Numbered from the stretch's first letter, positions 1,233 through 18,471 are shown. The stretch: DNA of 64,000 bases from an uncultured Gemmatimonadaceae bacterium (GCA_963781585.1 CAWAGQ010000004.1:1024001-1088000); one strand, 5' to 3'. A program made the numbers and translations. Notes: generated by a model not told the origin, from the sequence alone.

Positions 1233-4200
1233 TCAGCGCTCGAACAGCCACTCGTCCTTGAGCACGTCCACCGTCTTGGTCTGACTCATCCCCCCCACGG
1301 TGAGCGTCACCGCGTAGGTGCCCGGATCCACAGCACCGAACCCACCGAATCCGCCGCCTCGCCCACCACCACCGCCCCCACCACCACCCTGCGGCGGATT
1401 GGGCGCGAGATTCCACAGCACGCGGTTGATGCCGGCGTCCTTGGTGCCATCGAGGGCCCTGATCTCGCGACCGGTGGCGTCCTTGATAGTGATCTTCACG
1501 TCCCCCGACGCCGGTGTCTTGAGGTAGTAGCTGATGTACGTGCCGCGCGGCGGATTCGCACCCGAAAACACCTTCTGTCCGCCACCTTGCGACCCCAGCC
1601 GGCGGTCGTTCAGCCACGCCACCGCCGGCCGAACGTCGAACAGTGTCACGTCCGCGGATTGCACCGCTGGGGTCAGCTGCTGGAGCGGCGTGATGTCATC
1701 GGCGATCCACACGCCTCGCCCGTGCGTGGCCACGATCAGGTCCCCATCGCGCGGATGAATGAAGATGTCGTCGGTGCGCACGGTGGGATAATCGTTCATG
1801 AACTTCTTCCACGATTTGCCAGCATCGGTGGAGAGATAGAGGCCAAACTCGGTCCCGACGTACAGCAGATCCTTGTTCTTCGGATCTTCCTTCACGACCT
1901 GGATGTTGCCGTACGCCGGAAGATCGTTGGCGATGCTCTGGAAGGTCGCGCCGAAGTCGTGCGTGACGTAGAGATACGGTCTGAGATCATCGCTCCGGTG
2001 TCCGTCCACCGACACGTACGCCGTCGCCGAGTCGAAGTGCGAGGCGTCCACTCGCGAAATCCAGTACATGTTGCCGCGCGGCAGTCCCGGGAGGTTCTTT
2101 CCAACCTCGGTGAACGACACGCCCCCGTCACGCGTGACCTGCAGATTGCCGTCGTCGGTGCCGGCCCATACGATGCCAGGCTTCACCGGCGATTCGGAGA
2201 CCGTGATGATCGTGCTGTACTCGCTGAGGCCGTCGTTCTTCGACAGCATCGTCAGGTTCCCTTTCATCCCCATGATCTCGGCGTCATTGCGATCGTACTG
2301 CTTCGTGAGATCCGGGCTGGCGATCCAGGTGTCGCCACGATCGTACGACTTGAAGAGCCGGTTTCCGCCCAGCCAGAGCACCTGGGGATTGTGCGGCGAG
2401 ATGATGTAGGGCGTGTTCCAGTTGAAGCGGTACTGCTCGGTGGGCGGCAGGTTGATGACGTTCGAGCGCCCCCCGGCTCCACCACCGCCCCCGCCCCCGC
2501 CCCCACCGCCCCGCCCGCCGACGCCACGTGGTTTGATGCTGGGCGAGCGACCGGTCGCCACTTCGATGCGGTTGACGTTGCCGTCCTGTGACTCCGCGTA
2601 GATCACGTTGAAGTCTGTGGGATCCACGGCCGTGTAGAAACCGTCGCCGCCGCCAATGCGGAACCAATCGCTGTTGAGGATTCCGTTTCCGCTGCGACGC
2701 ATCGACGGTCCGGCCCAGCTGCCGTTGTCCTGGAGCCCGGTGTAGACCCAGTAGGGGTGCCCCATGTCAGCCGTCACCACGTAGGAGAGCGCCGTCGCCA
2801 TGGTATTCACGTAGTCCCAGGTCTTCCCCTGATCCCACGAGATATCCAGGCCCCCATCGTTGCCGATCATCAGGTGATTCGAGTTCTTCGGATCGACCCA
2901 GATGGCATGCTGATCGACGTGTCCGGGAGAGTCGTTCCCGCCGGCGTCATCGAGAGTGGCGAACGTCTTGCCGCCATCGACCGACTTGGCCACTGGAAGC
3001 CCGGCCACATAGATGATGTCCGGGTTCATTGCGTCGACGCGCAGTTGGCTGAAGTACATCGGCCGCGCATCGCAATTTGTGATGAGGCGGAACGACCCCC
3101 CGGCGTTGTCCGACCGGAAGACGCCGCCCCGCGACAGATCGAGCTTCGGCGGCGTCTGCGGCTCCGCCGGCGCCGCTTGCTGTCCGCCACGTCCGCCGCC
3201 CCGCCCGAAGCCGTGCGTCGGACCGCCATTGTTACACCAATCGAATCCGCCCCGTCCACCGCCGCCCCCGCCACCACCACCACCACCGCCGCCCGCCCGC
3301 CCAGCGCGACCCGCCGCGCCCGGCTGATTCGCGGGCTGGGGCGGCGGCGCACCGCCACGACCACGGCCGGCGTCGGGAGTCCCCGTCACACCCGCCTCGA
3401 CCTGCACGTACACGATATTCGGATTCGACCGTGAGACATCCAGGGCAATGCGCCCGTAGGTCACGCCCGTCGGAAGGCCGCTGGTGAGCTTGTTCCAGGT
3501 ACGCCCCGCGTCCGTCGATTTCCAGACTGCGCTCCCGGGCCCTCCCCCGTTGAAGCAGCACGTGGTGCGGCGGCGCTGATAGCTGGAGGCGTAGAGCACA
3601 CTCGGATTCGCGTGATCGATTGCGATGTCGTTGAAGCCGGTGTCCTCATCGATGTACTTCACCTTCGTCCAGGTCCTGCCGCCGTCGGTGGACTTGTAGA
3701 TGCCGCGATCCGGACTGGAACCGAACAGATGGCCCGGCGAGGCCACGTACACCGTCTCGGGATTCCGCGGGTCGATGACGATGCGCGCGATCGTCTGCGT
3801 CTCCCGCAGCCCCATCGGCTGGAAGGTCTTCCCGCCATCGGTCGTCTTGTAGAGGCCGGCGCCGAACGACGACGTCTGGCGATTGTTCGGCTCGCCCGTT
3901 CCCACGTACACGATGTTCGGGTTGGTCGGATGAATCGCGATGTCGCCGATCGACGCGACCTCGTAGGTCTGGAAGACCGGCTCGAACGTCGTGCCGTTGT
4001 TTTCCGACTTCCATACACCGCCCACGGCGTATCCGAGATAGATGATGTTCGGATTCGACTCGGACACGGCGATGTCGTCGAGGCGCCCCCCCATGCCGGC
4101 GGGCCCGACGTTGCGGAATCGGAACGACTTCAGCAGGGGATCGGAAGACTGATTGAACATGGGGCCGGACTCTTCCTGTCCACCACCGCGTCCCTGCGCG

Positions 4201-4271
4201 GCAAGCCCGGTCGCGCCCACCAGGAGCGCCGAGAGAGTGCAGAGCGAATACCGCCGAAGTCCGCTGTCCAT
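1233..4271 (-). CDS. VPS10/sortilin-like BNR-repeat beta-propeller protein (putative exported glycosyl hydrolase)
   Basis: Signal peptide; FRNVGPAGMGGR N-terminal motif; many Asp-box SxDxGxTW repeats; LIVATHGRG; Gly/Arg-rich inserts. Confidence 0.85.
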   Translation of the reverse strand: MDSGLRRYSLCTLSALLVGATGLAAQGRGGGQEESGPMFNQSSDPLLKSFRFRNVGPAGMGGRLDDIAVSESNPNIIYLGYAVGGVWKSENNGTTFEPVFQTYEVASIGDIAIHPTNPNIVYVGTGEPNNRQTSSFGAGLYKTTDGGKTFQPMGLRETQTIARIVIDPRNPETVYVASPGHLFGSSPDRGIYKSTDGGRTWTKVKYIDEDTGFNDIAIDHANPSVLYASSYQRRRTTCCFNGGGPGSAVWKSTDAGRTWNKLTSGLPTGVTYGRIALDVSRSNPNIVYVQVEAGVTGTPDAGRGRGGAPPPQPANQPGAAGRAGRAGGGGGGGGGGGGGRGGFDWCNNGGPTHGFGRGGGRGGQQAAPAEPQTPPKLDLSRGGVFRSDNAGGSFRLITNCDARPMYFSQLRVDAMNPDIIYVAGLPVAKSVDGGKTFATLDDAGGNDSPGHVDQHAIWVDPKNSNHLMIGNDGGLDISWDQGKTWDYVNTMATALSYVVTADMGHPYWVYTGLQDNGSWAGPSMRRSGNGILNSDWFRIGGGDGFYTAVDPTDFNVIYAESQDGNVNRIEVATGRSPSIKPRGVGGRGGGGGGGGGGGAGGRSNVINLPPTEQYRFNWNTPYIISPHNPQVLWLGGNRLFKSYDRGDTWIASPDLTKQYDRNDAEIMGMKGNLTMLSKNDGLSEYSTIITVSESPVKPGIVWAGTDDGNLQVTRDGGVSFTEVGKNLPGLPRGNMYWISRVDASHFDSATAYVSVDGHRSDDLRPYLYVTHDFGATFQSIANDLPAYGNIQVVKEDPKNKDLLYVGTEFGLYLSTDAGKSWKKFMNDYPTVRTDDIFIHPRDGDLIVATHGRGVWIADDITPLQQLTPAVQSADVTLFDVRPAVAWLNDRRLGSQGGGQKVFSGANPPRGTYISYYLKTPASGDVKITIKDATGREIRALDGTKDAGINRVLWNLAPNPPQGGGGGGGGGRGGGFGGFGAVDPGTYAVTLTVGGMSQTKTVDVLKDEWLFER

Positions 4272-5744: not shown

Positions 5745-5918
5745 TCAGAATTCGCGGCGCTTCATCTCGCGGAACATGCGTTGTATTTCGCCCGTCTCGT
5801 CCTGGTTCCGACGCGTCGCATCGAGCGTCGCATCGTACGTTCGGGACCGGTTGGTCTGTACCCTGGCCGCCCTCGCTGCGTTTTTCCGTGCCAGCGCCTC
5901 GAGCTTCTTCTGGTTCAT
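5745..5918 (-). CDS. Small basic hypothetical protein, 57 aa (MNQKKLEALARKNAARAARVQTNRSRTYDATLDATRRNQDETGEIQRMFREMKRREF)
   Basis: Not in the ORF track; ATGA overlap with the terB-like stop at 5915-5918; fills the gap to the next gene. Confidence 0.65.
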   Translation of the reverse strand: MNQKKLEALARKNAARAARVQTNRSRTYDATLDATRRNQDETGEIQRMFREMKRREF

Positions 5919-6403
5919 GACCCTTCTGCTCCTTTTTGCGGAGTCCTTTGGGTAGCAGCCGCTGCCTTGGCTGCTGAAAGATAGCCGGGTTCGAGCTCGA
6001 GAAGGTTGGCGATCTTCCGCGTGAGGTATTGCTCATGCTCGGCAATCTTCCCGTCGGCCAGAACCAGCCCCCACATCACCTCGGCCAGTACCATCTTCTG
6101 ACCAAGGTCATAGCGCTTCTGTAACATCGACGTGAAGTGAAAGTGGTCGATCGACTTCCGCCGTTCGGCGTCGGCGATTTCGATGAGGCGTCGGCCGGCT
6201 TCCGGCTCCAACCCGAAGTGGCGCTCCAGAACGGCGTCGAGATGGGCGCGTTCTGGGGCCGTGAACTCGCCATCCGCGTACGCCACTTCGAGCAGCAGCG
6301 CGCAGGCCGCCAGATGGAGAGGATCGACGTCGGGATCGGGGGACGCGGTCGGTGCGGCGTCCTTACGCGGGGCAATCAGGGATCGAATCTGGTCCAGGAT
6401 CAT
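5915..6403 (-). CDS. TerB family (tellurite-resistance-like) protein
   Basis: LAACALLLEVAYADGEF..E and LADG.I..HE..L.RKIA.LL motifs. Confidence 0.85.
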   Translation of the reverse strand: MILDQIRSLIAPRKDAAPTASPDPDVDPLHLAACALLLEVAYADGEFTAPERAHLDAVLERHFGLEPEAGRRLIEIADAERRKSIDHFHFTSMLQKRYDLGQKMVLAEVMWGLVLADGKIAEHEQYLTRKIANLLELEPGYLSAAKAAAATQRTPQKGAEGS

Positions 6404-6590
6404 TCCTGCCTCCAGTCGTTTGGGAGCGGCGAGGAGAGAGGCCCGTGGCCGCCTGCCGGCAGCCGCGCGCGCCGCCTATCGCAAGGTACTGCACTGTGAC
6501 AAGGGTGTCAGCACGCGAAGACATCGGTTGCCGCGCCCGCGTTACTCGTGCTTCTTTGTTGCCGCCTCGTCACTCGTCGGAGCGCACGCG

Positions 6591-7271
6591 ATGTCGCAAA
6601 CCGGGAAACCAGGATTCCGGATTCTCCCCGCCCCGCCGCGGCTGAGCACTGATGTGGTGGAGCGCTTTCGCGGCTTCGCGAGTTCCAATCTGGCCGATGC
6701 GATGGGGCGCTTCCGGTACATGGACCCGGGGATTCAGTCCCGGAGCGGCCGGTCGCTTTGCGGAATCGCCCTGACCGCCCTCTGCCGTCCAGCGGATAAC
6801 CTCATGGTCCACAAGGCGCTCGCGGTGGCCGCTCCGGGCGACGTCGTGGTAGTGAACACCGGCGGCAACCTCACGAGCGCGGTGTTCGGTGAGCTGATGT
6901 GTCACACCGCCATGGGAGCGCGGTTGGGCGGGATTGTGGTGGACGGCGCGATCCGGGACGTGGAGGGCATTACAGAGCTGGGCCTCCCGGCCTTCAGCCG
7001 AACCGTGAGTCCCGGAGGCTGCGACAAGGATGGACCCGGCGAGATCAACGTGCCCGTGTGCTGCGGCGGCACCGTCGTCTCCCCGGGCGACATCATCGTG
7101 GGCGACGGCGACGGAATCGCCGTGGTGCCACGCGAGCTCGCCATGGAGATCCTGGATCTCGTCGGCGCTCTGCAGGCGCGCGAGCGCGATCGGGTCGCGG
7201 AGATTCGCGCCGGCGCCCTGTTCCGGGCCGAGATCGACGAGACCTTGCGCCGCAAGGGCGCGATCGAATGA
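6591..7271 (+). CDS. RraA family protein / HMG-CHA aldolase-like
   Basis: DNLMVH, GELM, DGAIRD, GPGEINVPV.CGG..V.PGDIIVGDGDG motifs; start re-called to ATG 6591. Confidence 0.88.
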   Translation: MSQTGKPGFRILPAPPRLSTDVVERFRGFASSNLADAMGRFRYMDPGIQSRSGRSLCGIALTALCRPADNLMVHKALAVAAPGDVVVVNTGGNLTSAVFGELMCHTAMGARLGGIVVDGAIRDVEGITELGLPAFSRTVSPGGCDKDGPGEINVPVCCGGTVVSPGDIIVGDGDGIAVVPRELAMEILDLVGALQARERDRVAEIRAGALFRAEIDETLRRKGAIE

Positions 7272-8422
7272 ACCCGGACCCCGCGTCCCTGGTGCTGATG
7301 ACACCGGGACCGACGCGCGTGCCCGAGCGCGTCCTGCGCGCCGGAGCCCGGCCCATGCTGCACCACCGCACGCCGGAGTTCTCACGGGAACTGGCCGCGG
7401 TCCTCGAGCTGCTCGCTCCGGTATTCGGCACCGCCGGGCGTGTGCTGCCGGTGCACACCACCGGTCGCGGTGCGATGGAAGCCACGATCTGCAACCTCTT
7501 CTCGCCCGGCGAGGAGATCGCAGTCTGCTGCAATGGCAAGTTCGGCGAGATGTGGGCGTCGTTCGCGGAATCGTACGGCCTCGTGGTGCATCGCTTCGCG
7601 CGAAGCTGGCACGAGGACATCGATCCTCTGGAGCTGGAGCACGCGTTCGACGAACATCGGCGCCTGAAGGCCCTGGCCCTGGCCTTCGGCGACACCTCCA
7701 CCGGCGTGTGCAATGACGTCGAGGCGGCCAGCCGCATCGCTCACGCCCGCGGCGTCCTGGTGCTCGTGGACGGCGTATCGTCGTTAGGCGGCATGCCGTT
7801 CGCTTTCGACGCCTGGGGTGTGGATGTCGCCATCACGGCTTCACAGAAGTGCCTGATGTCGGCGCCGGGACTGTCATTCGTCGCGGTCAGCGAGCGGGGC
7901 TGGGCGGCGGTCGCGCGGTCGCGACTCCCCCGCAACTACTGGGACTTCCGTGCGATTCGCGACGAGGTGTCCAAGCCGCGGCCGGAAACCCCCGGAACGA
8001 CGCCCGTGCACATCGTCCTGCAGGTGGCCGAGGCACTCCGGATGATGCACGAGGAGGGACTCGCCGCCGTCTTCGCGCGTCACGAGAGCATGGGCGCGCG
8101 CACCCGCGAAGGCGTGGCGGCTCTCGGACTCTCACTGCAGTGCGGCACCCTGCGGCGCCTGTCGCCCACGCTCACGGCGGTCGCGCTGCCGACCTCGATC
8201 GCGCCACGGGCCCTGCGTGACGCGATGAAGGAACGCGGCATTCTCACCGCTGCCGGACTGGGCCCGTTCGCCACCACGGCCTTCCGAATCGGCCACATGG
8301 GAGACATCCGCCTCGCCGACGTGGAACGGACGCTGGACGTCCTGGCACAGGTACTCCCTGCCACGCGTGAAGCGACAGCATCAGCCCCCGCGCCCGGCGC
8401 CCGCGGCGTGCCGGCCGAGTGA
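7268..8422 (+). CDS. Class V PLP aminotransferase (alanine-glyoxylate / serine-pyruvate family)
   Basis: LMTPGPT, DTSTG, VDGVSS, ASQKCLMSAPG (PLP Lys), FRIGHMG; ATGA overlap with upstream gene. Confidence 0.9.
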   Translation: MNPDPASLVLMTPGPTRVPERVLRAGARPMLHHRTPEFSRELAAVLELLAPVFGTAGRVLPVHTTGRGAMEATICNLFSPGEEIAVCCNGKFGEMWASFAESYGLVVHRFARSWHEDIDPLELEHAFDEHRRLKALALAFGDTSTGVCNDVEAASRIAHARGVLVLVDGVSSLGGMPFAFDAWGVDVAITASQKCLMSAPGLSFVAVSERGWAAVARSRLPRNYWDFRAIRDEVSKPRPETPGTTPVHIVLQVAEALRMMHEEGLAAVFARHESMGARTREGVAALGLSLQCGTLRRLSPTLTAVALPTSIAPRALRDAMKERGILTAAGLGPFATTAFRIGHMGDIRLADVERTLDVLAQVLPATREATASAPAPGARGVPAE

Positions 8423-9672
8423 AGCTGCATACCAGCATCCTCCTTGGCCTGGTGGCCGGGGCCGCGGTGGGCGGCGCGGCTCGCCTTGCCGGGGCGCCGC
8501 TGCAGCGCGCGGTGTTGCTCGCCGAGCCGCTCGGCACGGCGTTCATTCGACTGGTTACGATGGTCGTGGTTCCGCTGGTCATCGCCAGCCTGTTCGTCGG
8601 AGTCGCTTCACTCGGGGATGTGCGCCGCCTGGGACAGATCGGCGGTCGCAGTCTGGGCTGGTTTCTCGCGACGACCGTGGCAGCCGCGACAATCGGCCTC
8701 GCTACGGCGCTGGTGCTTCATGTCGGTCGAAATGCGCCGGCTGTAGCGTTCGCCAGCCAGGCAGCCAACGGCGCAGACGCGCCCGATGGTGTGAGCGCAG
8801 CCGGACTTGGCAAGGCGCTGCTGGCTCTCATCCCGCAGAATCCGTTTGCCGCCGCGGCGCAGGCCGATCTGCTCCCACTGATCGTCGCGGTGTGCCTGTT
8901 CGCGGCCGCGGCAACCGCGATCGGCGAGGAGCGTCGTCGGCCGCTGCTGTCCTTCTTCGAGAGCGTGAACGACGTGGCGATGGTGCTGATTCGCTGGCTG
9001 ATGGCACTCGCGCCGGCCGCAGTCCTGGTACTCATCGCCGCGACGGTCGCACGGTCGGGGCTGGCGATGCTGCGGAGTCTGTTGTGGTACGCGGTCGTGG
9101 TCGTTATCGCGTTAGGCATTCACGTCGGCGCGGTACTGCTGCCGCTGCTGCGGGCGCGCGCCGGGCTGGGGGTGGGCGGGTTCCTGCGTGCCGTGGGCGA
9201 TGCGCTGCTGCTTGCCCTGTCGACCGCCTCGTCGAGCGCGACCCTGCCGGTGAGCATGGCCGCGGCGCGGGACCGCCTTGGCATTCCCAACGAAGTGGCG
9301 AGTTTTCTGCTTCCCGCGGGTACGACCCTGAACAAGAACGGGGCCGCGGTTTACAAGGCCGTCACCGCGGTGTTCCTGGCGCAGGTCTACGGCCTTCACC
9401 TCGACCCGGTGCGGCTCGGCGTCATTCTGATCACCGCCTCCGTGGCCGCCTTTGCCGGGGCCGGCGTACCTGGAAGCTCCCTCGTCACGACCCTCATCGT
9501 GCTCAACGCGATCGGACTCGGTCCACGCGCGGCGGCCGGCATCGCGTTGGTCACGGGCATCGACCGGCCGCTCGACATGTGTCGCACCACCGTCAACACG
9601 CTCGGCAACCTGGTTGGTGCCGCGGTTGTCGCCCGCCGCCACCAGGGCACACCCGAGTCCGGGCGGAGGTGA
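8419..9672 (+). CDS. Dicarboxylate/amino acid:cation symporter (DAACS/SLC1)
   Basis: FIRLVTMVVVPL, STASSSATLP, AGVPG, DRPLDMCRTTVN; GTGA overlap. Confidence 0.9.
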   Translation: MKLHTSILLGLVAGAAVGGAARLAGAPLQRAVLLAEPLGTAFIRLVTMVVVPLVIASLFVGVASLGDVRRLGQIGGRSLGWFLATTVAAATIGLATALVLHVGRNAPAVAFASQAANGADAPDGVSAAGLGKALLALIPQNPFAAAAQADLLPLIVAVCLFAAAATAIGEERRRPLLSFFESVNDVAMVLIRWLMALAPAAVLVLIAATVARSGLAMLRSLLWYAVVVVIALGIHVGAVLLPLLRARAGLGVGGFLRAVGDALLLALSTASSSATLPVSMAAARDRLGIPNEVASFLLPAGTTLNKNGAAVYKAVTAVFLAQVYGLHLDPVRLGVILITASVAAFAGAGVPGSSLVTTLIVLNAIGLGPRAAAGIALVTGIDRPLDMCRTTVNTLGNLVGAAVVARRHQGTPESGRR

Positions 9673-9676
9673 ACGA

Positions 9677-10945
9677 GTGGTATCGGCCAAGACGATTTCC
9701 GAGAAGATCCTTTCGATCAAGTCTGGCTCCGACGCGCGGGCTGGCGACGTGGTGGTCTGTGTGACCGATCAGGTCATCGGCACCGACGCCTCCGCACCGA
9801 TGGCGATCGACTACTTCGAGCAGATGGATGGTGACCGCCTGTTCGACGCCTCGCGGGTGATGTTCGCGCTCGACCATTACGCACCGCCGACGTCGCCGGT
9901 CACCGCGTCGTACCATGCCCGGGTCCGGGAATTTGCCGCCCGGTTCGGTGCCGAGGTGCGTGAGGTGGGCGAGGGCATCAGTCATCAGGTCGCCGCCGAA
10001 AGCGGGCGGGCGCTCCCGGGCAACCTGATCGTGGGTGCCGACAGCCACACGGTGGGATGTGGGGCGCTCAACCTCTTCGCAACAGGTGTCGGCTCCTCCG
10101 ATCTGGCGGCCGCCATGCTCACCGGGCAGATCTGGTTGCGGGTGCCGGACTCGGTCCGGGTCGTGCTGTCAGGACGGCGTGGGCCCGGCGTGGCCGCCAA
10201 GGACGTGGGCCTCGCGCTCATTGCCGCACTCGGCGCCGACGGTGCCAACTACCGGGCGCTGGAATTCCATGGCGAGGCGTTAGGCGGCTTCACGCTCGAA
10301 GAACGGGTCGTGCTGTGCAATCTCGCGGTGGAGACCGGCGCCAAGGCGGCCATCTGCCCCGTGGATCAGGAGACGCACGAGTACCTCGCCGGCCGGACGA
10401 CCGATCTCGGCCGCCCGGTGCACGCCGACGCCGGCGCCCGGTATGTCCGCGAAGTCACCCTCGACGTGTCGAACGTGGCACCGCAGCTGGCGGTCCCACA
10501 TGCACCGGACCGGGTGGTACCGCTGGACGCAGCCGCTGGAACGCCGGTGCACATGGTGTTCATCGGGACCTGTACCGGCGGCCGCGTGGCCGACATTCAC
10601 GATGCGCTGCGGGTGCTCGAGCGCGGTGGCGGACGCCTCGCGCCCAACGTCCAGCTCGTCGTAACGCCGGCCTCGCGCGAAGTCTTCCTCCGCCTCATCG
10701 AGGATGGCTCGCTCGGCCGACTCGCGGCGCTTGGCGCGGTCATTACCACGCCCGGCTGCGGCGCCTGCTGCGGCACCAGCGGCGTGGTCCCGGCCGATGA
10801 CATGGTCGTGCTGTCGACCGCCAATCGCAATTTCCGGGGTCGGATGGGGAATTCCTCGGCCGCCATCTATCTCGCGTCCCCGGCCGCGTGCGCCGCTGCC
10901 GCCGTCACGGGGCGGATCACCGATCCGCGTACCGTACACGTCTGA
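9677..10945 (+). CDS. Aconitase family hydratase large subunit (LeuC/HacA/DmdA-like)
   Basis: KTISEKIL, DH, GISHQ, GADSHT, IGTCTGG, PGCGACCG, STANRNF.GRMG, YLASP. Confidence 0.9.
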   Translation: MVSAKTISEKILSIKSGSDARAGDVVVCVTDQVIGTDASAPMAIDYFEQMDGDRLFDASRVMFALDHYAPPTSPVTASYHARVREFAARFGAEVREVGEGISHQVAAESGRALPGNLIVGADSHTVGCGALNLFATGVGSSDLAAAMLTGQIWLRVPDSVRVVLSGRRGPGVAAKDVGLALIAALGADGANYRALEFHGEALGGFTLEERVVLCNLAVETGAKAAICPVDQETHEYLAGRTTDLGRPVHADAGARYVREVTLDVSNVAPQLAVPHAPDRVVPLDAAAGTPVHMVFIGTCTGGRVADIHDALRVLERGGGRLAPNVQLVVTPASREVFLRLIEDGSLGRLAALGAVITTPGCGACCGTSGVVPADDMVVLSTANRNFRGRMGNSSAAIYLASPAACAAAAVTGRITDPRTVHV

Positions 10946-10946
10946 G

Positions 10947-11498
10947 ATGGCCACGCATCTGCGGGCGCGCGCTCGCGTGTTGGGCGACAACGTCAACAGT
11001 GATTACATCATCGCGTCCACGCGGAAGCGCGATTCCCTCGATACGGAGGTCCTCAAGCAGTACCTGCTCGAAGCGGTGGACCCTTCCTTCGCGCAGTCCG
11101 TTCGCGCGGGCGACGTCCTGGTCGCCGGCGAAAACTTCGGCTGCGGTTCGGCAATGGAGGTCGCCGCGACCGTCATTCTGGCTGCGGGAATTCGCGTGGT
11201 CCTGGCACGAAGCTTTGCTCGCGCCTTCTTCCGCAACGCCGTCAATAACGGGCTGGTGCCACTCGAGTGCGACACCGCCGGCATCGCCGAAGGCGACCGC
11301 CTGACGATTGATCTGATGGGCGGAGATGCGCGGGTCACCAATCTCACACGCAACCTGGCGATCGAGGCGGCCAGTCTTCCCGCCATTGCACTTCGGATCC
11401 TCGATGCCGGCGGGCTGGTGGCGTTCCTGCGTGCGCAACCGGGACACTCGTTCACCGCATCCACCACCGGCGAGCATCCGCGGCGGACGCCGGACTGA
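10947..11498 (+). CDS. Aconitase family hydratase small subunit (LeuD/HacB-like)
   Basis: GDNVNSDYII, AGENFGCGS, SFARAFFRNAVNNG, ILDAGGL. Confidence 0.9.
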   Translation: MATHLRARARVLGDNVNSDYIIASTRKRDSLDTEVLKQYLLEAVDPSFAQSVRAGDVLVAGENFGCGSAMEVAATVILAAGIRVVLARSFARAFFRNAVNNGLVPLECDTAGIAEGDRLTIDLMGGDARVTNLTRNLAIEAASLPAIALRILDAGGLVAFLRAQPGHSFTASTTGEHPRRTPD

Positions 11499-11649: not shown

Positions 11650-13104
11650 CTACGCCGAGCGATGCCCTTCCTGTCCGGACGCGGCCTTCATGTCGTAGAG
11701 CATCAGATCTGCGGTGGACAGGAGCGCCTCGGCGGTCGCCCCGTCGCGAGGGTAGACGGCGTAGCCAGCGCTCACGGTCACGCGGGGAGACTGGCCATCG
11801 CTCTCCAGGGCGGCCGCGATTCGGGCTGTCACGTGGTACGCGGCATTATCATCAGCCTCCGGCAGCACCAGCGCGAACTCATCGCCCCCGTAGCGCGCCG
11901 CGGTGTCGATCGTGCGACACGTTGTCCGCATCGCATCGGCTACCCGGCACAGCGCCTTGCTGCCTGTCAGATGGCCGTGACGATCGTTGATGTCCTTGAG
12001 GCGATCCAGATCGAGGAGCAGGACCGCGAAGGACCGCTTCGTTCGCGCCGACCGCTGAATCTCCTGCTCCAGCACGTCCAGCAGCTGGCGATAGTTCGAC
12101 AGCCCGGTGAGCGCGTCGGTTACCGCCAGTCGTCGCAATTGCCCTTCCACGCTCTCCCGCTCGGCGACCACGCTGGCGAGCACCAGGCTGGTCAGCGCAT
12201 TCACGCCGGTAAAGACCTGAAGCAGCACCAGACTCTCGTTGAGCGTGCCGGTGACGAACGGGCCGCGACCGTGCACCGTCCCCCAGGTGGCGATCCCGGA
12301 GACGACCAGCACCGCGGTGGCAGCCTCGCGGCGTCCGAACCGATATGCCGCCCAAAGCAGCAGGGGCATGCACAGGAATTCGAGGGGGAAACTCGAACCC
12401 TGGTCGCCAGGGAGTCCGCCAAACACAAAGAGCGCGACCGCGGCAAGGGAGACCAGCAGGGCGAGCGCCTCGAGCCACTGGTATACGGTCCACTGCACTC
12501 GAGGACGGGCGAGCCACAGGAGCAGAAGCGGCGCGATGACGATGTCTCCGCCTGCGTCACCCAGCCACCAGGTGGTCCAGATGGACCAGAATTCGTGCCA
12601 TTGTGCAAGTCCGCCGAGGGCGAGCGTCGTCACGCCCACGGTGGCGCTCACCATCGTGCTCGCTATCGCCGCGTAGAACACGAGCCTGACGATGTACGAC
12701 GCCCGTTCAACCGCGTGTCGCCCACCCGCGAATCGCTGGAGGAGCGCCGCACCAACCAGGGCCTCGAGCGTGTTTCCGGTCGCGATTCCAAGCGACGTCG
12801 CCACGCCTCCGGCAGTCAGCAGGCTGGCGATGAATGCGCCCAGAAACACGCCCGGCCAGGGACGCGGACCGAAATAGAGCAGGGCCGCGAGCGCGATGCC
12901 GGAGGCTGGCCAGACCGCGGTCGCACTGGCATTGACCACGGCAAACTGCAGGCCGAAGCGTGCCGCGACGAAATACACGAGCGCCAGCGCCATGCAGGCC
13001 GCCAGAAGTTGGTGCGCACGCCACAGCCGGGGGCCGGCGGGGGGCGCGTTCGTGTCACCAAGCGTGCTATTCTCGCCTGCGGGAGCGGCCAAGGATGTCG
13101 CCAT
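11650..13104 (-). CDS. MASE1-domain diguanylate cyclase
   Basis: MASE1 TM region (VWPASG, WWLGDAGG); DALTGL.N, D.D.LK.IND..GH, RYGGDEF. Confidence 0.9.
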   Translation of the reverse strand: MATSLAAPAGENSTLGDTNAPPAGPRLWRAHQLLAACMALALVYFVAARFGLQFAVVNASATAVWPASGIALAALLYFGPRPWPGVFLGAFIASLLTAGGVATSLGIATGNTLEALVGAALLQRFAGGRHAVERASYIVRLVFYAAIASTMVSATVGVTTLALGGLAQWHEFWSIWTTWWLGDAGGDIVIAPLLLLWLARPRVQWTVYQWLEALALLVSLAAVALFVFGGLPGDQGSSFPLEFLCMPLLLWAAYRFGRREAATAVLVVSGIATWGTVHGRGPFVTGTLNESLVLLQVFTGVNALTSLVLASVVAERESVEGQLRRLAVTDALTGLSNYRQLLDVLEQEIQRSARTKRSFAVLLLDLDRLKDINDRHGHLTGSKALCRVADAMRTTCRTIDTAARYGGDEFALVLPEADDNAAYHVTARIAAALESDGQSPRVTVSAGYAVYPRDGATAEALLSTADLMLYDMKAASGQEGHRSA

Positions 13105-13428: not shown

Positions 13429-15195
13429 TTATCGGGGCGCCGTGTCGTCCCGCGCCGGCCGCTCCGGCGCCAGGCGTTCCGGAGTCAGCGCCTCAGGAAG
13501 CTCCTCCGGCGCAATCACACCCCGCCCAACCAGCTCCAATGCGCGATTCCGCATCGGGACCAGCCCCGCCGCCAGCGCCGCATCGCGCAACTCGTTGAGG
13601 GCAAGCCGGCGCGCGATGGCGCGACGCACCGCCGAGGTCGCGTCGAGGTACTCGACCAGCGCGATCCGGCCGTGACTCCCGACCCCGCCGCATCGGCTGC
13701 ACCCGGTTCCGCGGAATGCGGTGAACCCGGGCGGCACACCGTCCGGGAAGATCTCGCCTAACAAGTCTGCGTCCGCAGTGTGCGGCGCCCGACAGCCGTC
13801 GCAGATTCGCTTGGCCAGCCGCTGCGCGAACACGGCAGCCAACTCGCTCGCGATCGAATTGGGATGCATGCCCAAGTCCAGCAGGCGCTGCACGGCGTCG
13901 ATCGCGTCATTGCCGTGGAGCGTAGAGAGGACCAGGTGTCCGGTCTGCGACGCCCGCAGCGCCTCGAGTGCCGTTTCCCCGTCCCGGATCTCGCCCACCA
14001 GAATGACGTCAGGATCCTCCCGCACGAAGGCGCGCATGGCGTTGGCGAACGTGAACCCGACTTCGGGCAGCACCTGCGATTGCTGTACGCCGTCGATCGC
14101 ATACTCGATCGGATCCTCGACCGTGATCACCTTGCGTGTGGTCTCCCCTGCCAGCACCTGCAGGCCCGCATAGAGCGTTGTCGATTTGCCCGATCCGGTC
14201 GGACCCACCACCAGCACCAGTCCTCCCGGGCTGTCGAGCAGACGCCGGTACGCGCGTGCCAGATCCTCCGGGAAACCGAGGTCCGGGATGGAAAGGAGGT
14301 TCGTATCCTGCGCCAGCAGGCGCAGCACCAGGTGCTCTCCGTGCAGCGACGGCTGGGTCTGCGCGCGCACGTCGAACTGCCGATCTCCCATGCGGACGCT
14401 GAAGCGGCCTCCCTGAGGCGCGCGGTGCTCGGCGAGATCCATCCTGGCGCGCACCTTCGCGACGCTGACGACCGAGACCGCCTGCGCAACGGTGAGCCGG
14501 TAGTGCGCCAGGTCGCGAAGATCGCCGTCGACGCGGATGCGTACCCGAACCTGCTCGCCGTAGACTTCAAGGTGTACGTCGCTGGCGCGCTCGGCGATGG
14601 CATCGAGCAGAATGGCCTGGAACAGCTCCTGAATTGGTGCCGAGAGGTGATGGTCTGCCGCGAGGAGGTTCGGCGTGGAGACCGACGCGGCCTGATCCCC
14701 GCGGGAATCGACCGGCATGGCGAGGTCGAGCGAGAGCCGGAGGCGACGATAGTCGGTGGGCGTGATGAGGACGATCTCGATCTCGCGCAGGCCGACCGCC
14801 GACGCCAGTTCGGGAGGGAACGCTTCCGGCTCCGACGATGCGACGATCAGGCGCCCGGCCGCGATAGCCAACGGCACCAGATGGTGGTATTCCCGAAACT
14901 GGCGGGAGATGCGTGCGACGACCTCACGATCGACGATCGGCAGCAGGTCGGCGACATCGGCAAAGCGCAGCTCGTGCAGGATCGCGAGCTGCTGATACAC
15001 GTCGCGCTCCTCGGCCATCCCCTGTTCCGTGAGGATCTCACCGATGCGGCGGCGCACACGCCGAGCGAGCGCGGCCGCCTGCTCGACGTCCTCACGCGAC
15101 GCAATGCCCGCCTCGACAATCAGGTCGCCCAGACGCCTGTCGAGCCGCTTCTGCCTCAGCGCGATCGTCTTCTCAGGCGCCTGGTCGGCGGACAT
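13429..15195 (-). CDS. GspE/PilB family secretion/pilus ATPase with N-terminal MshEN-like domain
   Basis: ASDVH.E, R.RVDG, GPTGSGKSTT, TVEDPIE, REDPDVILVGEIRD, TGHLVLSTLH, CxxC..CxxC. Confidence 0.9.
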   Translation of the reverse strand: MSADQAPEKTIALRQKRLDRRLGDLIVEAGIASREDVEQAAALARRVRRRIGEILTEQGMAEERDVYQQLAILHELRFADVADLLPIVDREVVARISRQFREYHHLVPLAIAAGRLIVASSEPEAFPPELASAVGLREIEIVLITPTDYRRLRLSLDLAMPVDSRGDQAASVSTPNLLAADHHLSAPIQELFQAILLDAIAERASDVHLEVYGEQVRVRIRVDGDLRDLAHYRLTVAQAVSVVSVAKVRARMDLAEHRAPQGGRFSVRMGDRQFDVRAQTQPSLHGEHLVLRLLAQDTNLLSIPDLGFPEDLARAYRRLLDSPGGLVLVVGPTGSGKSTTLYAGLQVLAGETTRKVITVEDPIEYAIDGVQQSQVLPEVGFTFANAMRAFVREDPDVILVGEIRDGETALEALRASQTGHLVLSTLHGNDAIDAVQRLLDLGMHPNSIASELAAVFAQRLAKRICDGCRAPHTADADLLGEIFPDGVPPGFTAFRGTGCSRCGGVGSHGRIALVEYLDATSAVRRAIARRLALNELRDAALAAGLVPMRNRALELVGRGVIAPEELPEALTPERLAPERPARDDTAPR

Positions 15196-15204
15196 GACGC
15201 TGCG

Positions 15205-18200
15205 TTACCCTCCGGCGGCAGGCGAATGGTCGGACACAGCGTTCGTCCGCTGCGGAGGCGGCTCGTCGGTCGTCGGGACGATCTCGGGAAGTCCGGCCGC
15301 CTTGAGCATGGCGTTCAGGCGACCGAGGAACGCATCCACGTTCTTCTTGTATCGGGCGAGCTCCCGGTCGAGTTTCGGCGACAACGTGTTGAAGACCTCG
15401 TATGCCTGCGGGGGCGGCCGCCGTTCGCCGTTACTCACGAAACCCATCAGTGCCGCAAGCTGGTTGTTCACGCGTACCGGGAAGTTGAGTGGATCCTCAC
15501 CGCTCTTGTTCTTCGTCTGGTAGATGGAGTCTTCGACCGCGCTCAGACTGTCGGCAAACGTCGTGGCGAGCGGCGCGAACGCCGCGACCGCCGCCATCTT
15601 CGGTGTGCGGTCATCGAGCTGCCGTTTGACGCTGCGAATTCGCTTGACGGCGTCGTTGGCCTCGGTGACCCGGTCGCGTAGCTGCAGCGCGAACCGCGTC
15701 TGCTCGGCGAGATCGGCGTCGGTGGCGCTCGCTCGCGGGTCGCGGCGAACCACGAGCGGTGCCGACAGCGGCGCGGCGTCGCCGACCGTGAGCCGCACGG
15801 TGTAGGTCCCCGGCGCGATCGCCGGGCCGGTGACTCCGCCCGCCCAGAAGATCATCCCCTGAAAGCTCGATGCGTCGGGGTAGCGCATGTTCCATTGATA
15901 CTGATTGACGCCGAGCCGCGTGGTGACCCGCGCCGCACCGGCGCCACCAAATCGCCCGCCGCCTCCGCGCCCGCCGACGCCCTGCGGCACCGAATCCGTG
16001 GACGAGTATTTCCGGACGAGCTTGCCTGTCGGATCGAGGAATTCAACAGTCACCGGCTGTGAGTCCTGCGCGAGGCGATACATCACGGTGGCGCTCGCGT
16101 TGCCGGCGCGGGTGACCGGCGCCGGCTTGTAGAGGAAGTTCTTCCCCTGCGCAGCCGCCACTTCCGGTGCCTGACGCAGCTCGGTCAGGTTCTCCATCAC
16201 CCAGAACGCCCGCCCGTGCGTGGCGATCACCATGTCGTCATCGCGCAGAGCGATGTCGTGTACCGGGACGGGCGGGAGGTTGCGCTGCAGGCTCTGCCAG
16301 TTGCGGCCGTCGTTGTACGACACCCACACGCCGCGTTCGGTGGCCGCGTACAGCAGACCTGGACGGACCAGGTCCTCGCGTACGGCGCGCGTGAACTCGG
16401 TCGGCGTGATCCCGTCAGTGATTTTCGTCCAGGTTGCTCCGTAGTCATGCGTCTTGTACAGGTACGGCGCGAAGTCGTCCAACTGGTATCGATTCGCCGC
16501 CACGTACGCCGTAGCCGGGTCATGCGGCGACGGGTCGATGATCGAGATGCGCGTCCACTCGGGCAGCCCTTTCGGTGTGACGTTCTTCCAGCTCTTGCCG
16601 CCGTCCCGGGTCAGGTAGATGAGCCCATCGTCCGAGCCTGTCCAGATCAACCCGGGCGTGACCGGTGACTCCTGGACGGCGAAGATCGTGGCGTAGTACT
16701 CGATAGACGTCTGATCCTTCGTGATGGGCCCACCCGACGGACCGAGCGTCGCGGGATCGTGCCGCGTGAGATCCGGCGAAATCACCGACCAGGTCTTCCC
16801 GTCGTTCGACGACTTGAAGAGCACGTTGGATCCCACGTACAGGACGTGCGGATCGCGCGGCGAGTTCATGATCGGGTACGTCCACTGGAAGCGGTACTTC
16901 GAATCCTTCGCGTCGTGGCCCATCGGGTTGAGCGGCCAGGGGTCCAGCCGCTCGCTCAGCCCGGTCCGGCGATTCTGCATCTCGAGCACGCCGCTGTAGT
17001 TGCCGCCGTAGGTGATTTCGGGATCGAGCGGATCGGAGGCGATGTAGCCCGACTCGCCGCCCGCAACACCGTAGAAGTCGGAATACTGCGGTCCGGACGT
17101 CGTGCCACCGCGCCCGCCGCGGCCTCCCCCGCCACCACCCCGTCCGAATCCGCCGGCCGCTCGCACCGGGCCGCACGACGATCCGGCATCCTGCTTGGCC
17201 CCGCACACGTGATATGGAACGTGATTCGTGAGGTGTACGTGGTAGAATTGCCCGGTCGGCGCCGCCACCCGGATCGACGATGAGCCGCCGTCGGTGGTGA
17301 TGATCGCCCCGTTGTCGTGCGCCACGGCGATCCGCTTCGGGTCGTCGGGCGCGATCCACACGTCATGATTGTCGCCGCCGCCGAACCCGCGCGCGAAGGT
17401 CTTGCCGCCATCCTTCGACCACATCGGTCCCACGTTAGGCGCTGCAAGGACGTTCGTGTCCTTCGGGTCGGCGTAGATGTTCGAGTAGTACCAGGCCCGC
17501 TGGCGCAGATCGCGGTCGCCATTCATGAAGGTCCAGGTCGCCCCGCCGTCGGCCGATCGGTAGATGCCGCCGTTCGGCTCATGCTCGATCAGCGCCCACA
17601 CCAGGTTCGACTTCACCGGCGACACCGCGACGCCGATGCGTCCCAGAACTCCCGACGGGAGCCCGGGGTTGTGCGTGATCTCCGTCCAGTGTTCCCCACC
17701 ATCGGTGGTCTTGAAGATGCCGCTCCCGGCCCCGCCGCTGATGAGCAACCACGGTTTCCGCCCGGCCTGCCAGAACGCGGCGTACAGCACCTCCGGATTC
17801 GTCGGATCCATGACCAGATCGCTGATGCCGGTGGAGTCGTTCCGGAACAGCACCTTGCGCCAGGTTCTGCCACCGTCGGTGGTCTTGAAAACGCCGCGCT
17901 CCGGATTCGGTCCCCACACATGTCCGAGCGCACCGACGTACACAATGTCCGGATTGGTGGGGTGGACACGGACCCTCGCAATCTGTTGCGTCTCTCGGAG
18001 ACCCAGGTAGCTCCAGGTCTTTCCACCGTCCGTGGTCTTCCAGACACCCTCGCCATGGGACACGTTTCCGCGGATCGGCGATTCGCCGCCCCCCACGTAC
18101 ACGATGTCGGGATTGCTCTCGCTCACAGCGATCGCCCCGATGGTCCCGCCGAAGTACTTGTCGGTAACTGGTGTGAGGGTCGTGCCACCATCCGTTGTCT

Positions 18201-18471
18201 TCCACACGCCGCCACCGGTTGTGCCGAAGTAGTACTCCCTGGGTCTCGCCGACGAACCCGCTACCGCAGCCATCCGGCCCGCGCTGTTCGGGCCGATGCT
18301 TCGCCACTGCAGGCTGCCCCACAGCGCGGTGTCGACGGGGACCGCGACCTGCGTCGCGGCGGATATCTGCCGGCCGACGGACGATCCGGTGGGTCGCTGC
18401 TGTGCCACAAGGGCACCGGGCACAGCGCAGGCGACGGCCAGTGCTCGCGAGAGGAGGGTCGGTCGATTCAC
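15205..18471 (-). CDS. VPS10/sortilin-like BNR-repeat protein (putative exported glycosyl hydrolase), second paralog
   Basis: Signal peptide; WRSIGP..AGR; Asp-box repeats; VIATHGRAFW; helical C-terminal domain. Confidence 0.85.
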   Translation of the reverse strand: MNRPTLLSRALAVACAVPGALVAQQRPTGSSVGRQISAATQVAVPVDTALWGSLQWRSIGPNSAGRMAAVAGSSARPREYYFGTTGGGVWKTTDGGTTLTPVTDKYFGGTIGAIAVSESNPDIVYVGGGESPIRGNVSHGEGVWKTTDGGKTWSYLGLRETQQIARVRVHPTNPDIVYVGALGHVWGPNPERGVFKTTDGGRTWRKVLFRNDSTGISDLVMDPTNPEVLYAAFWQAGRKPWLLISGGAGSGIFKTTDGGEHWTEITHNPGLPSGVLGRIGVAVSPVKSNLVWALIEHEPNGGIYRSADGGATWTFMNGDRDLRQRAWYYSNIYADPKDTNVLAAPNVGPMWSKDGGKTFARGFGGGDNHDVWIAPDDPKRIAVAHDNGAIITTDGGSSSIRVAAPTGQFYHVHLTNHVPYHVCGAKQDAGSSCGPVRAAGGFGRGGGGGGRGGRGGTTSGPQYSDFYGVAGGESGYIASDPLDPEITYGGNYSGVLEMQNRRTGLSERLDPWPLNPMGHDAKDSKYRFQWTYPIMNSPRDPHVLYVGSNVLFKSSNDGKTWSVISPDLTRHDPATLGPSGGPITKDQTSIEYYATIFAVQESPVTPGLIWTGSDDGLIYLTRDGGKSWKNVTPKGLPEWTRISIIDPSPHDPATAYVAANRYQLDDFAPYLYKTHDYGATWTKITDGITPTEFTRAVREDLVRPGLLYAATERGVWVSYNDGRNWQSLQRNLPPVPVHDIALRDDDMVIATHGRAFWVMENLTELRQAPEVAAAQGKNFLYKPAPVTRAGNASATVMYRLAQDSQPVTVEFLDPTGKLVRKYSSTDSVPQGVGGRGGGGRFGGAGAARVTTRLGVNQYQWNMRYPDASSFQGMIFWAGGVTGPAIAPGTYTVRLTVGDAAPLSAPLVVRRDPRASATDADLAEQTRFALQLRDRVTEANDAVKRIRSVKRQLDDRTPKMAAVAAFAPLATTFADSLSAVEDSIYQTKNKSGEDPLNFPVRVNNQLAALMGFVSNGERRPPPQAYEVFNTLSPKLDRELARYKKNVDAFLGRLNAMLKAAGLPEIVPTTDEPPPQRTNAVSDHSPAAGG

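Follow-up and report, generated by a model that had tools for sequence, protein, structure and literature searches.

Related systems and the five-gene operon

Several described systems use enzymes of the kinds encoded by a five-gene operon (plus strand) in the genome of an uncultured Gemmatimonadaceae bacterium, which we analysed within a stretch of 64,000 nucleotides, hereafter called the window (C4:1024001-1088000 of assembly G000; 5.7 Mb in 17 contigs, 93.5% complete, 7.2% contamination). In the 4,5-cleavage of protocatechuate and gallate, a hydratase (LigJ or GalB) forms a 4-hydroxy-2-oxo acid that is then split by an RraA-fold class II aldolase (LigK or GalC, 3NOJ). The β-hydroxyaspartate cycle (BhcABCD) pairs a dehydratase with an aspartate/oxaloacetate aminotransferase. 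The 4-hydroxyglutamate route of hydroxyproline catabolism employs aspartate aminotransferase, 4-hydroxy-2-oxoglutarate aldolase and glyoxylate aminotransferase: a γ-hydroxy amino acid is transaminated and cleaved in a retro-aldol reaction to pyruvate and glyoxylate, and an AGT-type enzyme handles the glyoxylate. Among the Fe-S hydro-lyases, LeuCD and HacAB (4KP1, 3VBA, 4KP2, 2PKP) share with the window's own LeuCD-like pair their fold, two-subunit make-up, cluster cysteines, catalytic Ser and His/Asp. Finally, AcnX is a precedent for the action of the aconitase superfamily on substrates other than alkylmalates, and the residues that follow its catalytic Ser are altered. The operon encodes an RraA-like protein, a class V aminotransferase, a DAACS-family symporter and LeuC-like and LeuD-like subunits (Table 1), and together these five genes look like an undescribed breakdown pathway for a glutamate- or aspartate-like amino acid.

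By analogy, the operon would do what hydratase and aldolase do at the end of the protocatechuate/gallate pathway, preceded by amino-acid steps of the 4-hydroxyglutamate type, and it is a member of neither. Unlike the former, it has no ring-cleavage genes and does have an aminotransferase and an amino-acid transporter; its aldolase falls below the LigK-type equivalog cut-offs (131 against 304.5 bits for TIGR02798, 146.6 against 179 for NF006731). Its hydratase belongs to the aconitase/LeuCD family, which we take to be distinct from the families of LigJ and GalB. Families of the 4,5-cleavage context were absent among the scanned neighbours, in the window and at related loci. The 4-hydroxyglutamate route matches trios of RraA, aminotransferase and transporter genes that we describe below, but it needs no hydro-lyase and uses an aldolase of another family, and the LeuCD-like pair of the operon implies a different or additional substrate. 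Likeness to the β-hydroxyaspartate cycle lies in BhcA being the nearest named aminotransferase family and in the pyridoxal phosphate (PLP) aldolase and IclR regulator that are likewise added at some α-proteobacterial loci. However, the class V aminotransferases score 245-275 bits against the cut-off of 650, and the dehydratase candidate is an Fe-S and not a PLP enzyme. AcnX is very distant and has other cluster ligands, whereas the operon enzyme is close to archaeal-type LeuCD/HacAB. From LeuCD and HacAB the pair departs in its GSAME motif, in a loop of RKR[DE] type instead of the YLV or YLRT types, in three large-subunit changes and in having no synthase or dehydrogenase partners.

The enzyme families and the pathway logic are familiar; the clade of the hydro-lyase is atypical and unassigned, and the pathway, though conserved, is an orphan. 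A search of the full-text literature, with subscription journals outside its coverage, found no description of a pathway combining LeuCD, RraA and an aminotransferase, and no characterised match to the operon; the initial annotation of the window, made from the sequence alone, had likewise left the pathway without a name.

A distinct clade of LeuCD-like hydro-lyases

The most telling sequence feature, which the initial annotation had missed, is the replacement of GSSRE by GSAME in the small subunit. Where HacB (2PKP) and the small subunits of isopropylmalate isomerase (3VBA and 1V7L) read GCGSSRE or GIGSSRE, the alignment shows GCGSAME; GSSRE is stated to be a near-universal motif of the small subunit (PMC7308503). 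The specificity loop reads R-K-R-D at the position of Y-L-R-T in HacB, and only the Arg of YLRT is shared. This loop had been singled out before, and it is present in the LeuD-like translation as DYIIASTRKRDS (D-Y-I-I-A-S-T-R-K-R-D-S).

The catalytic residues are kept. Ser68, the catalytic Ser of the small subunit, is invariant, as are three cluster cysteines, D-S-H, E219 and N-R..R of the large subunit in 76 of 76 clade sequences; N215 is found in 72 of the 76. Relative to the large subunit from M. jannaschii (4KP1), T36 stands for His in 75 of 76 sequences, and Y68 and M390 each stand for Gln in all 76. In the window protein these changes turn MVHD into IGTD, DHQ into DHY and GRQG into GRMG. 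The cluster cysteines, active-site residues and catalytic Ser place the pair, at the family level, in the superfamily of aconitase, isopropylmalate isomerase and homoaconitase. Because the Fe-S and catalytic residues are kept across the clade, the pair is almost certainly an active Fe-S hydro-lyase.

Profile scores draw the same line between family and equivalog. The large subunit passes the family-level models NF001614 (471 bits, cut-off 385) and TIGR01343 (454, cut-off 385.7), and the small subunit passes TIGR02087 for LeuD/DmdB (139, cut-off 109). By contrast, the equivalog models are all missed, for leuC (TIGR00170, 179 against 560 bits; TIGR02083, 376 against 611), for leuD (TIGR00171, 47 against 116; TIGR02084, 122 against 246) and for HacAB (NF040615, 346 against 550; NF040604, 121 against 230). 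The pair is LeuCD neither by score, nor by GSSRE motif, nor by leuA/leuB partners, and HacAB neither by score nor by YLRT loop.

The altered motif defines a large group of proteins. All 120 relatives among the matches listed in a search of 5.8 billion proteins combine SAME with the loop [AST][ST]xRK[RK][DE]. When 1.84 billion representatives were searched by HMMER without an index, 5278 matches were obtained at E <= 0.001, and among the best 150 of these the top scorers, 43 in number, carry SAME, 74 have the canonical SSRE with PARYL- or GKYL-type loops, and the other 33 have different motifs or none that could be located. We built a quick maximum-likelihood tree of 91 rows, for which 60 of the 150 representatives were dropped (fragments, over-long sequences or other motifs). 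In this tree 22 of 23 SAME rows and one STME row fall into a single clade (SH-aLRT 96), and one long-branch SAME row lies outside it. Three LeuD-family sequences, P0148, P0165 and P0192, are intermediate in kind: one has SSRE with a VKRKRD loop, one SSRE with an SSRHR loop, and one STME. They may mark the transition between the canonical enzymes and the GSAME clade.

In sum, an Arg, a Ser, a His and two Gln are gone from one subsite, where the residues that replace them are non-polar or lack hydrogen-bond donors, and the specificity loop shows one added acidic residue and two or three added cationic ones, which are invariant. These changes would fit a substrate in which the distal anionic group is more remote from the carbanion carbon than a β-carboxylate would be, with a 2-oxo-acid (oxalyl) unit, and not a β-carboxylate, as the proposed acidifier of the abstracted proton. 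The polar subsite beside the catalytic Ser would have been emptied, and the new cationic loop residues would contact a carboxylate that is more distant by one carbon. In the AcnX structures, the substrate carboxylate and the substituent of the carbanion carbon are contacted by the two residues that follow the catalytic Ser, and the second of them is polar when that substituent is nitrogen and Val when it is hydrogen (PMC8184944). By analogy, the Met found second after the Ser in the GSAME clade suggests a CH2 substituent.

Leucine and lysine biosynthesis in the host genome

The operon does not belong to leucine or lysine biosynthesis. A search of G000 with PF00682 (HMGL-like) gave zero matches, and hence no synthase for isopropylmalate, citramalate or homocitrate; nor did any canonical leuC score above cut-off anywhere in that genome. 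Besides the operon pair the genome has one gene of the aconitase family, a 984-aa AcnA-like frame, which leaves the operon pair as the only one of LeuCD type. The leuB family is represented by two genes, a bona fide NADP-isocitrate dehydrogenase and an isocitrate dehydrogenase (IDH)/LEU3_arch-like gene that lies on another contig and under every cut-off. The best TIGR00169 (leuB) score in the genome is 212 bits (cut-off 353), and the matching genes are of IDH type. The absence of leuA and leuB from the operon, pointed out in the initial annotation, thus extends for the HMGL-like domain to the whole genome. The same annotation had weighed what it would mean if the pair were the genome's only copy. 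It is the sole copy, but there is no leuA-type synthase for it to serve.

The HMGL-like domain is also absent from 5 of 20 other relatives searched. Because the HMGL-negative genomes include three that are 98-100% complete, the loss of leuA in this lineage looks real. Overall, the domain was matched in 15 of 21 genomes, a tally that counts the unpublished genome G008. This Gemmatimonadota lineage may be unable to make leucine, though pipelines would annotate an 'isopropylmalate isomerase' here. In other carriers of the GSAME clade, a true leuC above cut-off lies elsewhere in 4 of 5 genomes (Paraburkholderia fungorum, Bradyrhizobium pachyrhizi, Cupriavidus gilardii and Ramlibacter sp.); the fifth, a Gemmatimonadales metagenome-assembled genome (MAG), has none. 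Wherever pipelines attach the 'isopropylmalate isomerase' label to this clade, they inflate predicted leucine prototrophy in Gemmatimonadota and Acidobacteriota, as in G000, which has a 'LeuCD' and no leuA.

The aldolase, aminotransferase and transporter

The closest solved structure to the RraA-like protein is the HMG/CHA aldolase 3NOJ (5.7e-29). In the alignment with 3NOJ the equivalents of R40, N71, H75, G101, R123, D124, K147 and E199 are kept, T145 is replaced by Cys and R195 by Leu. In HMG/CHA aldolase, R123 is essential and stabilises the enolate, D124 and E199 are metal ligands, and mutation of N71 or K147 costs more than 1000-fold in kcat (PMC5065237). With its RraA fold, essential Arg, Asp and Glu ligands, Asn71 and Lys147, the window protein therefore appears to have what an HMG/CHA aldolase needs. 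Within the family it scores 224.2 bits with NF004850 (PRK06201, a 'hypothetical protein' subfamily), just below the cut-off of 231. Its counterparts reach 305.8 bits at the LeuCD-linked locus L059, and 279.2 and 230.9 at L100 and L104, both without LeuCD in the locus.

The class V aminotransferase reaches 245 bits with NF045640, the model for BhcA (L-aspartate--glyoxylate aminotransferase), against a cut-off of 650, and is not an equivalog. Domain scans of the operon found no other PLP dehydratase, aldolase or imine reductase, and no genes of BhcB, BhcC or BhcD type.

The symporter misses the equivalog models for GltP (NF008440, 217 against 638 bits) and DctA (182 against 513). It keeps D394, R397 and N401 of GltPh, with LDMCRTTVN aligned with LDMGRTMVN. 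In GltPh, D394 binds the α-amino group, R397 the side-chain carboxylate and N401 the main-chain carboxylate, and the three residues make the carrier prefer acidic amino acids to dicarboxylates and to neutral amino acids (PMC12668577). Because these residues are kept, the predicted cargo is an acidic amino acid, as opposed to a plain di- or tricarboxylate. The transporter differs from GltPh in reading NKNGA for NMDGT and Ala for R276; N-K-N-G-[AS] occurs in 15 of the 18 orthologues whose motif was located by pattern, out of 38 open reading frames (ORFs) in the cluster. In GltPh and its relatives, NMDGT helps to build the Na+ and substrate sites, and Lys for Met311 together with Asn for Asp312 might mean a different ion coupling.

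Two functions assigned in the initial annotation, that of an RraA/HMG-type aldolase and that of acidic amino-acid import, are strengthened by these residues: the one by the catalytic set of HMG/CHA aldolase, the other by the positions that hold the α-amino group and the acidic side chain.

Conservation of the module across phyla

We scanned gene neighbourhoods using one genome per species, which confirmed at least 578 relatives of the small subunit, and kept the best 80 loci. For comparison we used the subset of 51 loci whose sequence extends 6 kb or more to both sides of the LeuD-like gene. One of the two scan patterns was NFGCGSAM. Motif counts inside the 80 loci are circular because the loci were partly retrieved with this pattern; gene-neighbour counts are unaffected.

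A LeuC gene is adjacent to the LeuD-like gene at every locus (80 of 80, and 51 of 51 in the subset). An RraA-like gene lies within 6 kb at 61 of the 80 loci (45 of the 51), and an aminotransferase of any kind is present at 64 (51 of class V and 13 of class I/II), or at 44 in the subset (32 and 12, respectively). At least one of these two partners is found at 71 of 80 loci (49 of 51) and both at 54 of 80 (40 of 51); all five families of the window occur together at 28 of 80 (18 of 51). The module thus recurs across phyla in the kept loci, and the five-gene cluster is conserved. Because the arrangement recurs in other genomes, the adjacency of the operon genes is not due to chance.

The clade occurs in at least four phyla of soil and freshwater bacteria: Gemmatimonadota, Acidobacteriota, Pseudomonadota and Myxococcota. 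The gene order of the window dominates in Gemmatimonadota and Vicinamibacterales. In Terriglobia and Bryobacterales the order is LeuCD, class V aminotransferase and RraA, and eight acidobacterial loci include GltS. Paraburkholderia, Caballeronia and Burkholderia have a LysR gene beside LeuCD, RraA and an aspartate aminotransferase (AspAT)-like gene, followed by a GltI-like ABC system. In Cupriavidus LysR stands beside TctC, LeuCD, AspAT-like and RraA genes; Ramlibacter has the same LysR, TctC, LeuCD and AspAT-like genes, and its RraA is not adjacent. Bradyrhizobium combines IclR with RraA, LeuCD, a class V aminotransferase and an ABC transporter, and α-proteobacterial loci carry ABC or TAXI-TRAP transporters. 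In 13 β-proteobacterial loci the class V enzyme is substituted by the AspAT-like class I/II enzyme (PRK06107; 613-615 bits, cut-off 617). The regulators near clade loci are of LysR, IclR and GntR types, as is typical of catabolic operons.

Since two unrelated aminotransferase folds and at least five unrelated transporter types fill the same slots, the genes appear to belong to one pathway, whose substrate is an acidic amino acid taken up from outside. This non-orthologous replacement of the aminotransferase and the transporter is the strongest evidence for a single pathway. Within the window's phylum the distribution is patchy, with a clade match of at least 60% identity in just 5 of 201 sampled genomes; 7 more match at 40-46% identity and were taken as carrying ordinary archaeal-type LeuD. 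The identities of 55-69% between phyla are consistent with horizontal spread.

The RraA and LeuCD parts of the module also occur apart. All five genomes whose LeuCD locus has no adjacent RraA encode a PRK06201-like RraA elsewhere. In Ramlibacter this distant gene sits in a cluster of LysR and RraA, AspAT-like, substrate-binding protein, two permease and ATPase genes that contains no LeuCD (L100, an RraA trio without LeuCD). An Acidobacteriota MAG carries two tandem, diverged sets of RraA, class V aminotransferase and DAACS genes 18-22 kb from a GSAME-type LeuCD (L104, G214:C1:322000-341999). Under our crude gene calling, one DAACS copy at this locus is seemingly split into two ORFs. Because each occurs without the other, RraA with aminotransferase and transporter, and LeuCD with aminotransferase and transporter, are separable units that are combined in the window. 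The trio of RraA, aminotransferase and transporter is what the catabolism of a γ-hydroxy-α-amino acid would need.

A proposed pathway and its alternatives

We tentatively read the operon, with a confidence that falls a little short of even, as a self-contained catabolic unit for an acidic (glutamate- or aspartate-like) amino acid bearing a hydroxyl or a double bond, which would be taken up, transaminated, hydrated by the LeuCD-type enzyme and cleaved by the aldolase. The DAACS symporter would bring in the amino acid. The class V aminotransferase would then convert it into a 2-oxo diacid, with glyoxylate or pyruvate as a plausible amino acceptor. Next, the LeuCD-like [4Fe-4S] hydro-lyase would hydrate this product or shift its hydroxyl, giving a 4-hydroxy-2-oxo diacid of the type of HOG (4-hydroxy-2-oxoglutarate), HMG (4-hydroxy-4-methyl-2-oxoglutarate) or CHA (4-carboxy-4-hydroxy-2-oxoadipate). 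In this step the 2-oxo-acid (oxalyl) group would stand in for the β-carboxylate of ordinary alkylmalate substrates. Finally, the RraA-like class II aldolase would release pyruvate and a second 2-oxo acid (glyoxylate, pyruvate or oxaloacetate). Compared with the trio, an operon that includes the Fe-S hydro-lyase would have a wider range, covering analogues that first need hydration or a hydroxyl shift. Two γ-substituted glutamates may serve as illustration: 4-methyleneglutamate would yield HMG and from it two pyruvate, and 3-hydroxyglutamate would yield HOG and from it pyruvate and glyoxylate.

Other candidate substrates were considered by chemical reasoning only. Plain aspartate or glutamate, 3-methylaspartate, 2-aminoadipate and γ-carboxyglutamate fit poorly, and so do cysteate, sulfolactate and phosphonoalanine. 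Direct action of the hydro-lyase on 4-hydroxyglutamate was set aside, as the β-proton would not be activated.

The proposal retains much of the interpretation given in the initial annotation, namely a catabolic operon for an acidic amino acid in which a transaminase works with a (de)hydratase of LeuCD type and a lyase of RraA type, distinct from leucine biosynthesis. The lyase would carry out the retro-aldol cleavage suggested there or may instead decarboxylate oxaloacetate, and a reading centred on β-hydroxyaspartate and oxaloacetate also accounts for part of the data. Gene content, family membership, the kept catalytic residues, the conserved module and the missing leucine pathway are direct observations, and from them we infer the step order, the direction of the hydro-lyase reaction, the aldol role and the substrate.

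Several points weigh against our proposal. It is a prediction from sequences, and the glutamate analogues it proposes, unsaturated or hydroxylated at position 3, are not known to occur in abundance where the carriers live. Both aminotransferase types are nearest to aspartate enzymes, which points to aspartate and oxaloacetate and away from glutamate analogues, and class V AGT-type enzymes usually accept C3-C4 amino acids. The role given to the residue second after the catalytic Ser leans, by analogy, on the AcnX structures and on the general aconitase literature. We know of no aconitase-family enzyme with a 2-oxo group in place of the β-carboxylate. The motif counts within the loci retrieved with NFGCGSAM carry the circularity described above, from which the listing of 120 relatives and the HMMER set are free. 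At three α-proteobacterial loci, two of them without adjacent RraA, a threonine-aldolase-like PLP enzyme is present that the proposal leaves unaccounted for. Moreover, the aminotransferase is missing at some loci (for example L011, L036, L054, L039 and L070), and adjacent RraA at others (for example L083, L088, L046 and L066).

The main alternative, which we regard as unlikely but serious, would make oxaloacetate the hub of the pathway. The LeuCD-like pair would be an Fe-S β-hydroxyaspartate dehydratase (3-aminomalate to iminosuccinate, and on to oxaloacetate and ammonia) or, in a variant, a tartrate-type dehydratase; the aminotransferase would act on aspartate, and RraA would decarboxylate oxaloacetate to pyruvate. 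The operon would then degrade aspartate and β-hydroxyaspartate (from siderophores or glyoxylate metabolism) as an analogue of part of the β-hydroxyaspartate cycle. The nearest relatives of the two unrelated aminotransferases, BhcA and AspAT, favour this scheme, and the RraA family is itself named 'CHA aldolase/oxaloacetate decarboxylase'. It works for loci without an aminotransferase and for loci without RraA. It also draws on the α-proteobacterial threonine-aldolase-like PLP enzyme (three operons) and one IclR, which resemble the bhc cluster, and on AcnX as a case of dehydration of a β-hydroxy-α-amino acid within the aconitase superfamily. β-Hydroxyaspartate is, moreover, carried by GltP-family carriers. 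The active site weighs against this scheme. β-Hydroxyaspartate retains both malate carboxylates, so that the loss of the Arg and Ser of GSSRE and the changes of His to Thr, Gln to Tyr and Gln to Met go unaccounted for. The invariant R-K-[RK] loop would meet an ammonium group instead of an anion, and the residue second after the Ser, polar in AcnX at the substrate nitrogen, is here a Met. A dedicated aminotransferase would be redundant once dehydration frees ammonia, and the two diverged tandem trios of RraA, aminotransferase and DAACS genes suit exotic analogues better than plain aspartate. The eight loci with GltS also count against oxaloacetate as the hub; the GltS of E. coli is glutamate-specific.

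If the same reactions ran in the opposite direction, the operon could be biosynthetic: the aldolase would join pyruvate to a 2-oxo acid, the LeuCD-like enzyme would dehydrate or isomerise the product, and the aminotransferase would yield a non-proteinogenic acidic amino acid, with the transporter bringing in an amino donor or exporting the product. The reactions involved are all reversible, and pairs of aldolase and aminotransferase do produce γ-hydroxy amino acids. Clusters for natural products and phosphonates, the pantaphos HiVir cluster among them, also reportedly contain LeuCD-like enzymes. However, synthetase, tailoring and resistance genes were not seen at the examined loci, the recurring partners are uptake systems (ABC, TctC and TRAP, which only import) with LysR, IclR or GntR regulators, and the operon stands alone between unrelated genes, and we hold a biosynthetic role to be very improbable. 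An ordinary isopropylmalate or homoaconitate isomerase of leucine or lysine biosynthesis, placed beside unrelated genes by accident, is barely credible. For it one can cite the single LeuCD-type copy in a genome that is 93.5% complete and the IDH/LEU3_arch-like dehydrogenase on another contig. Against it stand the missing HMGL-like synthase in G000 and in a quarter of the other relatives searched (5 of 20), scores below cut-off with the LeuC, LeuD, HacA and HacB equivalog models alike, the altered GSSRE motif, the presence of the clade in so few of the 201 sampled genomes of the phylum, the true leuC that coexists in 4 of 5 other carriers, and a linkage to RraA, aminotransferase and transporters that spans phyla. 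The remaining probability falls to substrates or step orders not yet conceived.

More broadly, we see about an even chance that the GSAME clade is an unrecognised branch of the aconitase superfamily that has given up alkylmalates and hydrates or dehydrates a 2-oxo (or amino) diacid, whose keto/oxalyl group would take over from the β-carboxylate in acidifying the abstracted proton, and that together with PRK06201-type RraA it forms a widespread, horizontally shared and undescribed pathway for non-proteinogenic acidic amino acids, either γ-substituted glutamates or β-hydroxyaspartate. If so, the aconitase/LeuCD family would gain a new reaction type and the 'hypothetical' PRK06201 subfamily of RraA a function, and abundant, poorly cultured soil phyla would have a route to unusual acidic amino acids from plants, fungi, siderophores and necromass. 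A set of hydratase, aldolase and aminotransferase is also of the toolbox type for making chiral γ-hydroxy amino acids.

Operon layout and neighbouring genes

The ORF listing and translations give five co-directional genes whose neighbours overlap or sit 1-4 nt apart, and every family assignment is backed by Pfam and NCBIfam (Table 1). The five families and their tight junctions thus agree with the initial annotation. The RraA and aminotransferase genes overlap in ATGA, and the aminotransferase and DAACS genes in GTGA. Four nucleotides separate the DAACS gene from the LeuC-like gene, whose GTG start lies 8 nt past GGAGG, and a gap of 1 nt separates the latter from the LeuD-like gene. Because the genes on either side are unrelated and lie on the opposite strand, the five genes form a self-contained unit without an adjacent regulator. 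Between positions 5800 and 11800 no sigma-70-like promoter, intrinsic terminator or Rfam family was detected.

Table 1 Position and assignment of the operon genes and of neighbouring features in the window
Feature	Position	Strand	Length	Pfam match	Remarks
TerB gene	5915-6403	-			unrelated flank
Upstream intergenic region	6404-6590	+	187 nt		presumed promoter region (position only); divergent from TerB gene
RraA-like class II (metal-dependent) pyruvate aldolase / oxaloacetate decarboxylase	6591-7271	+	226 aa	PF03737 3e-42	PRK06201-type
Class V (AGT-type) aminotransferase	7268-8422	+	384 aa	PF00266 7.5e-24	nearest named family BhcA
DAACS/SDF-family symporter	8419-9672	+	417 aa	PF00375 8e-100	acidic amino-acid-type binding site
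LeuC-like large subunit	9677-10945	+	422 aa	PF00330 5e-87	aconitase-family Fe-S hydro-lyase
LeuD-like small subunit	10947-11498	+	183 aa	PF00694 3.5e-16	GSAME clade, loop ASTRKRDS
Whole operon	6591-11498	+			five genes
MASE1-GGDEF cyclase	11650-13104	-			unrelated flank
Type II/IV secretion ATPase	13429-15195	-			
Sortilin/Vps10-BNR repeat protein	1233-4271	-	1012 aa		very large
Sortilin/Vps10-BNR repeat protein	15205-18471	-	1088 aa		very large

Two very large repeat proteins of the sortilin/Vps10-BNR kind are also encoded in the window, one on either side of the operon; the secretion ATPase and the MASE1-GGDEF cyclase lie between the operon and the second of them.

Some of the related loci have neighbours of other kinds. 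Two Ramlibacter loci (L101 in G210 and L103 in G211) carry further PRK06201-like RraA genes beside a D-2-hydroxyacid dehydrogenase, TctC and a flavin mononucleotide (FMN)-dependent α-hydroxyacid dehydrogenase, and L103 also has a dihydrodipicolinate synthase (DHDPS)-like gene. The RraA ORFs at these two loci are 293-408 aa long, possibly with over-extended starts. This looks like a different, hydroxy-acid-centred context of the same aldolase subfamily. At two Hyphomicrobiales loci (L066, 5961-7981; L071, 7169-7960), an enoyl-CoA hydratase and a GntR gene precede LeuCD and the class V aminotransferase on the same strand, with TAXI-TRAP genes nearby. The hydratase belongs to the PRK06127 subfamily (307 bits, cut-off 291). 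L066 additionally encodes a CoA-transferase of family III, which scores far under cut-off and comes closest to the succinate-glutarate and mesaconate types. The CoA-transferase and the enoyl-CoA hydratase at these loci fit neither our proposed pathway nor the scheme centred on oxaloacetate.

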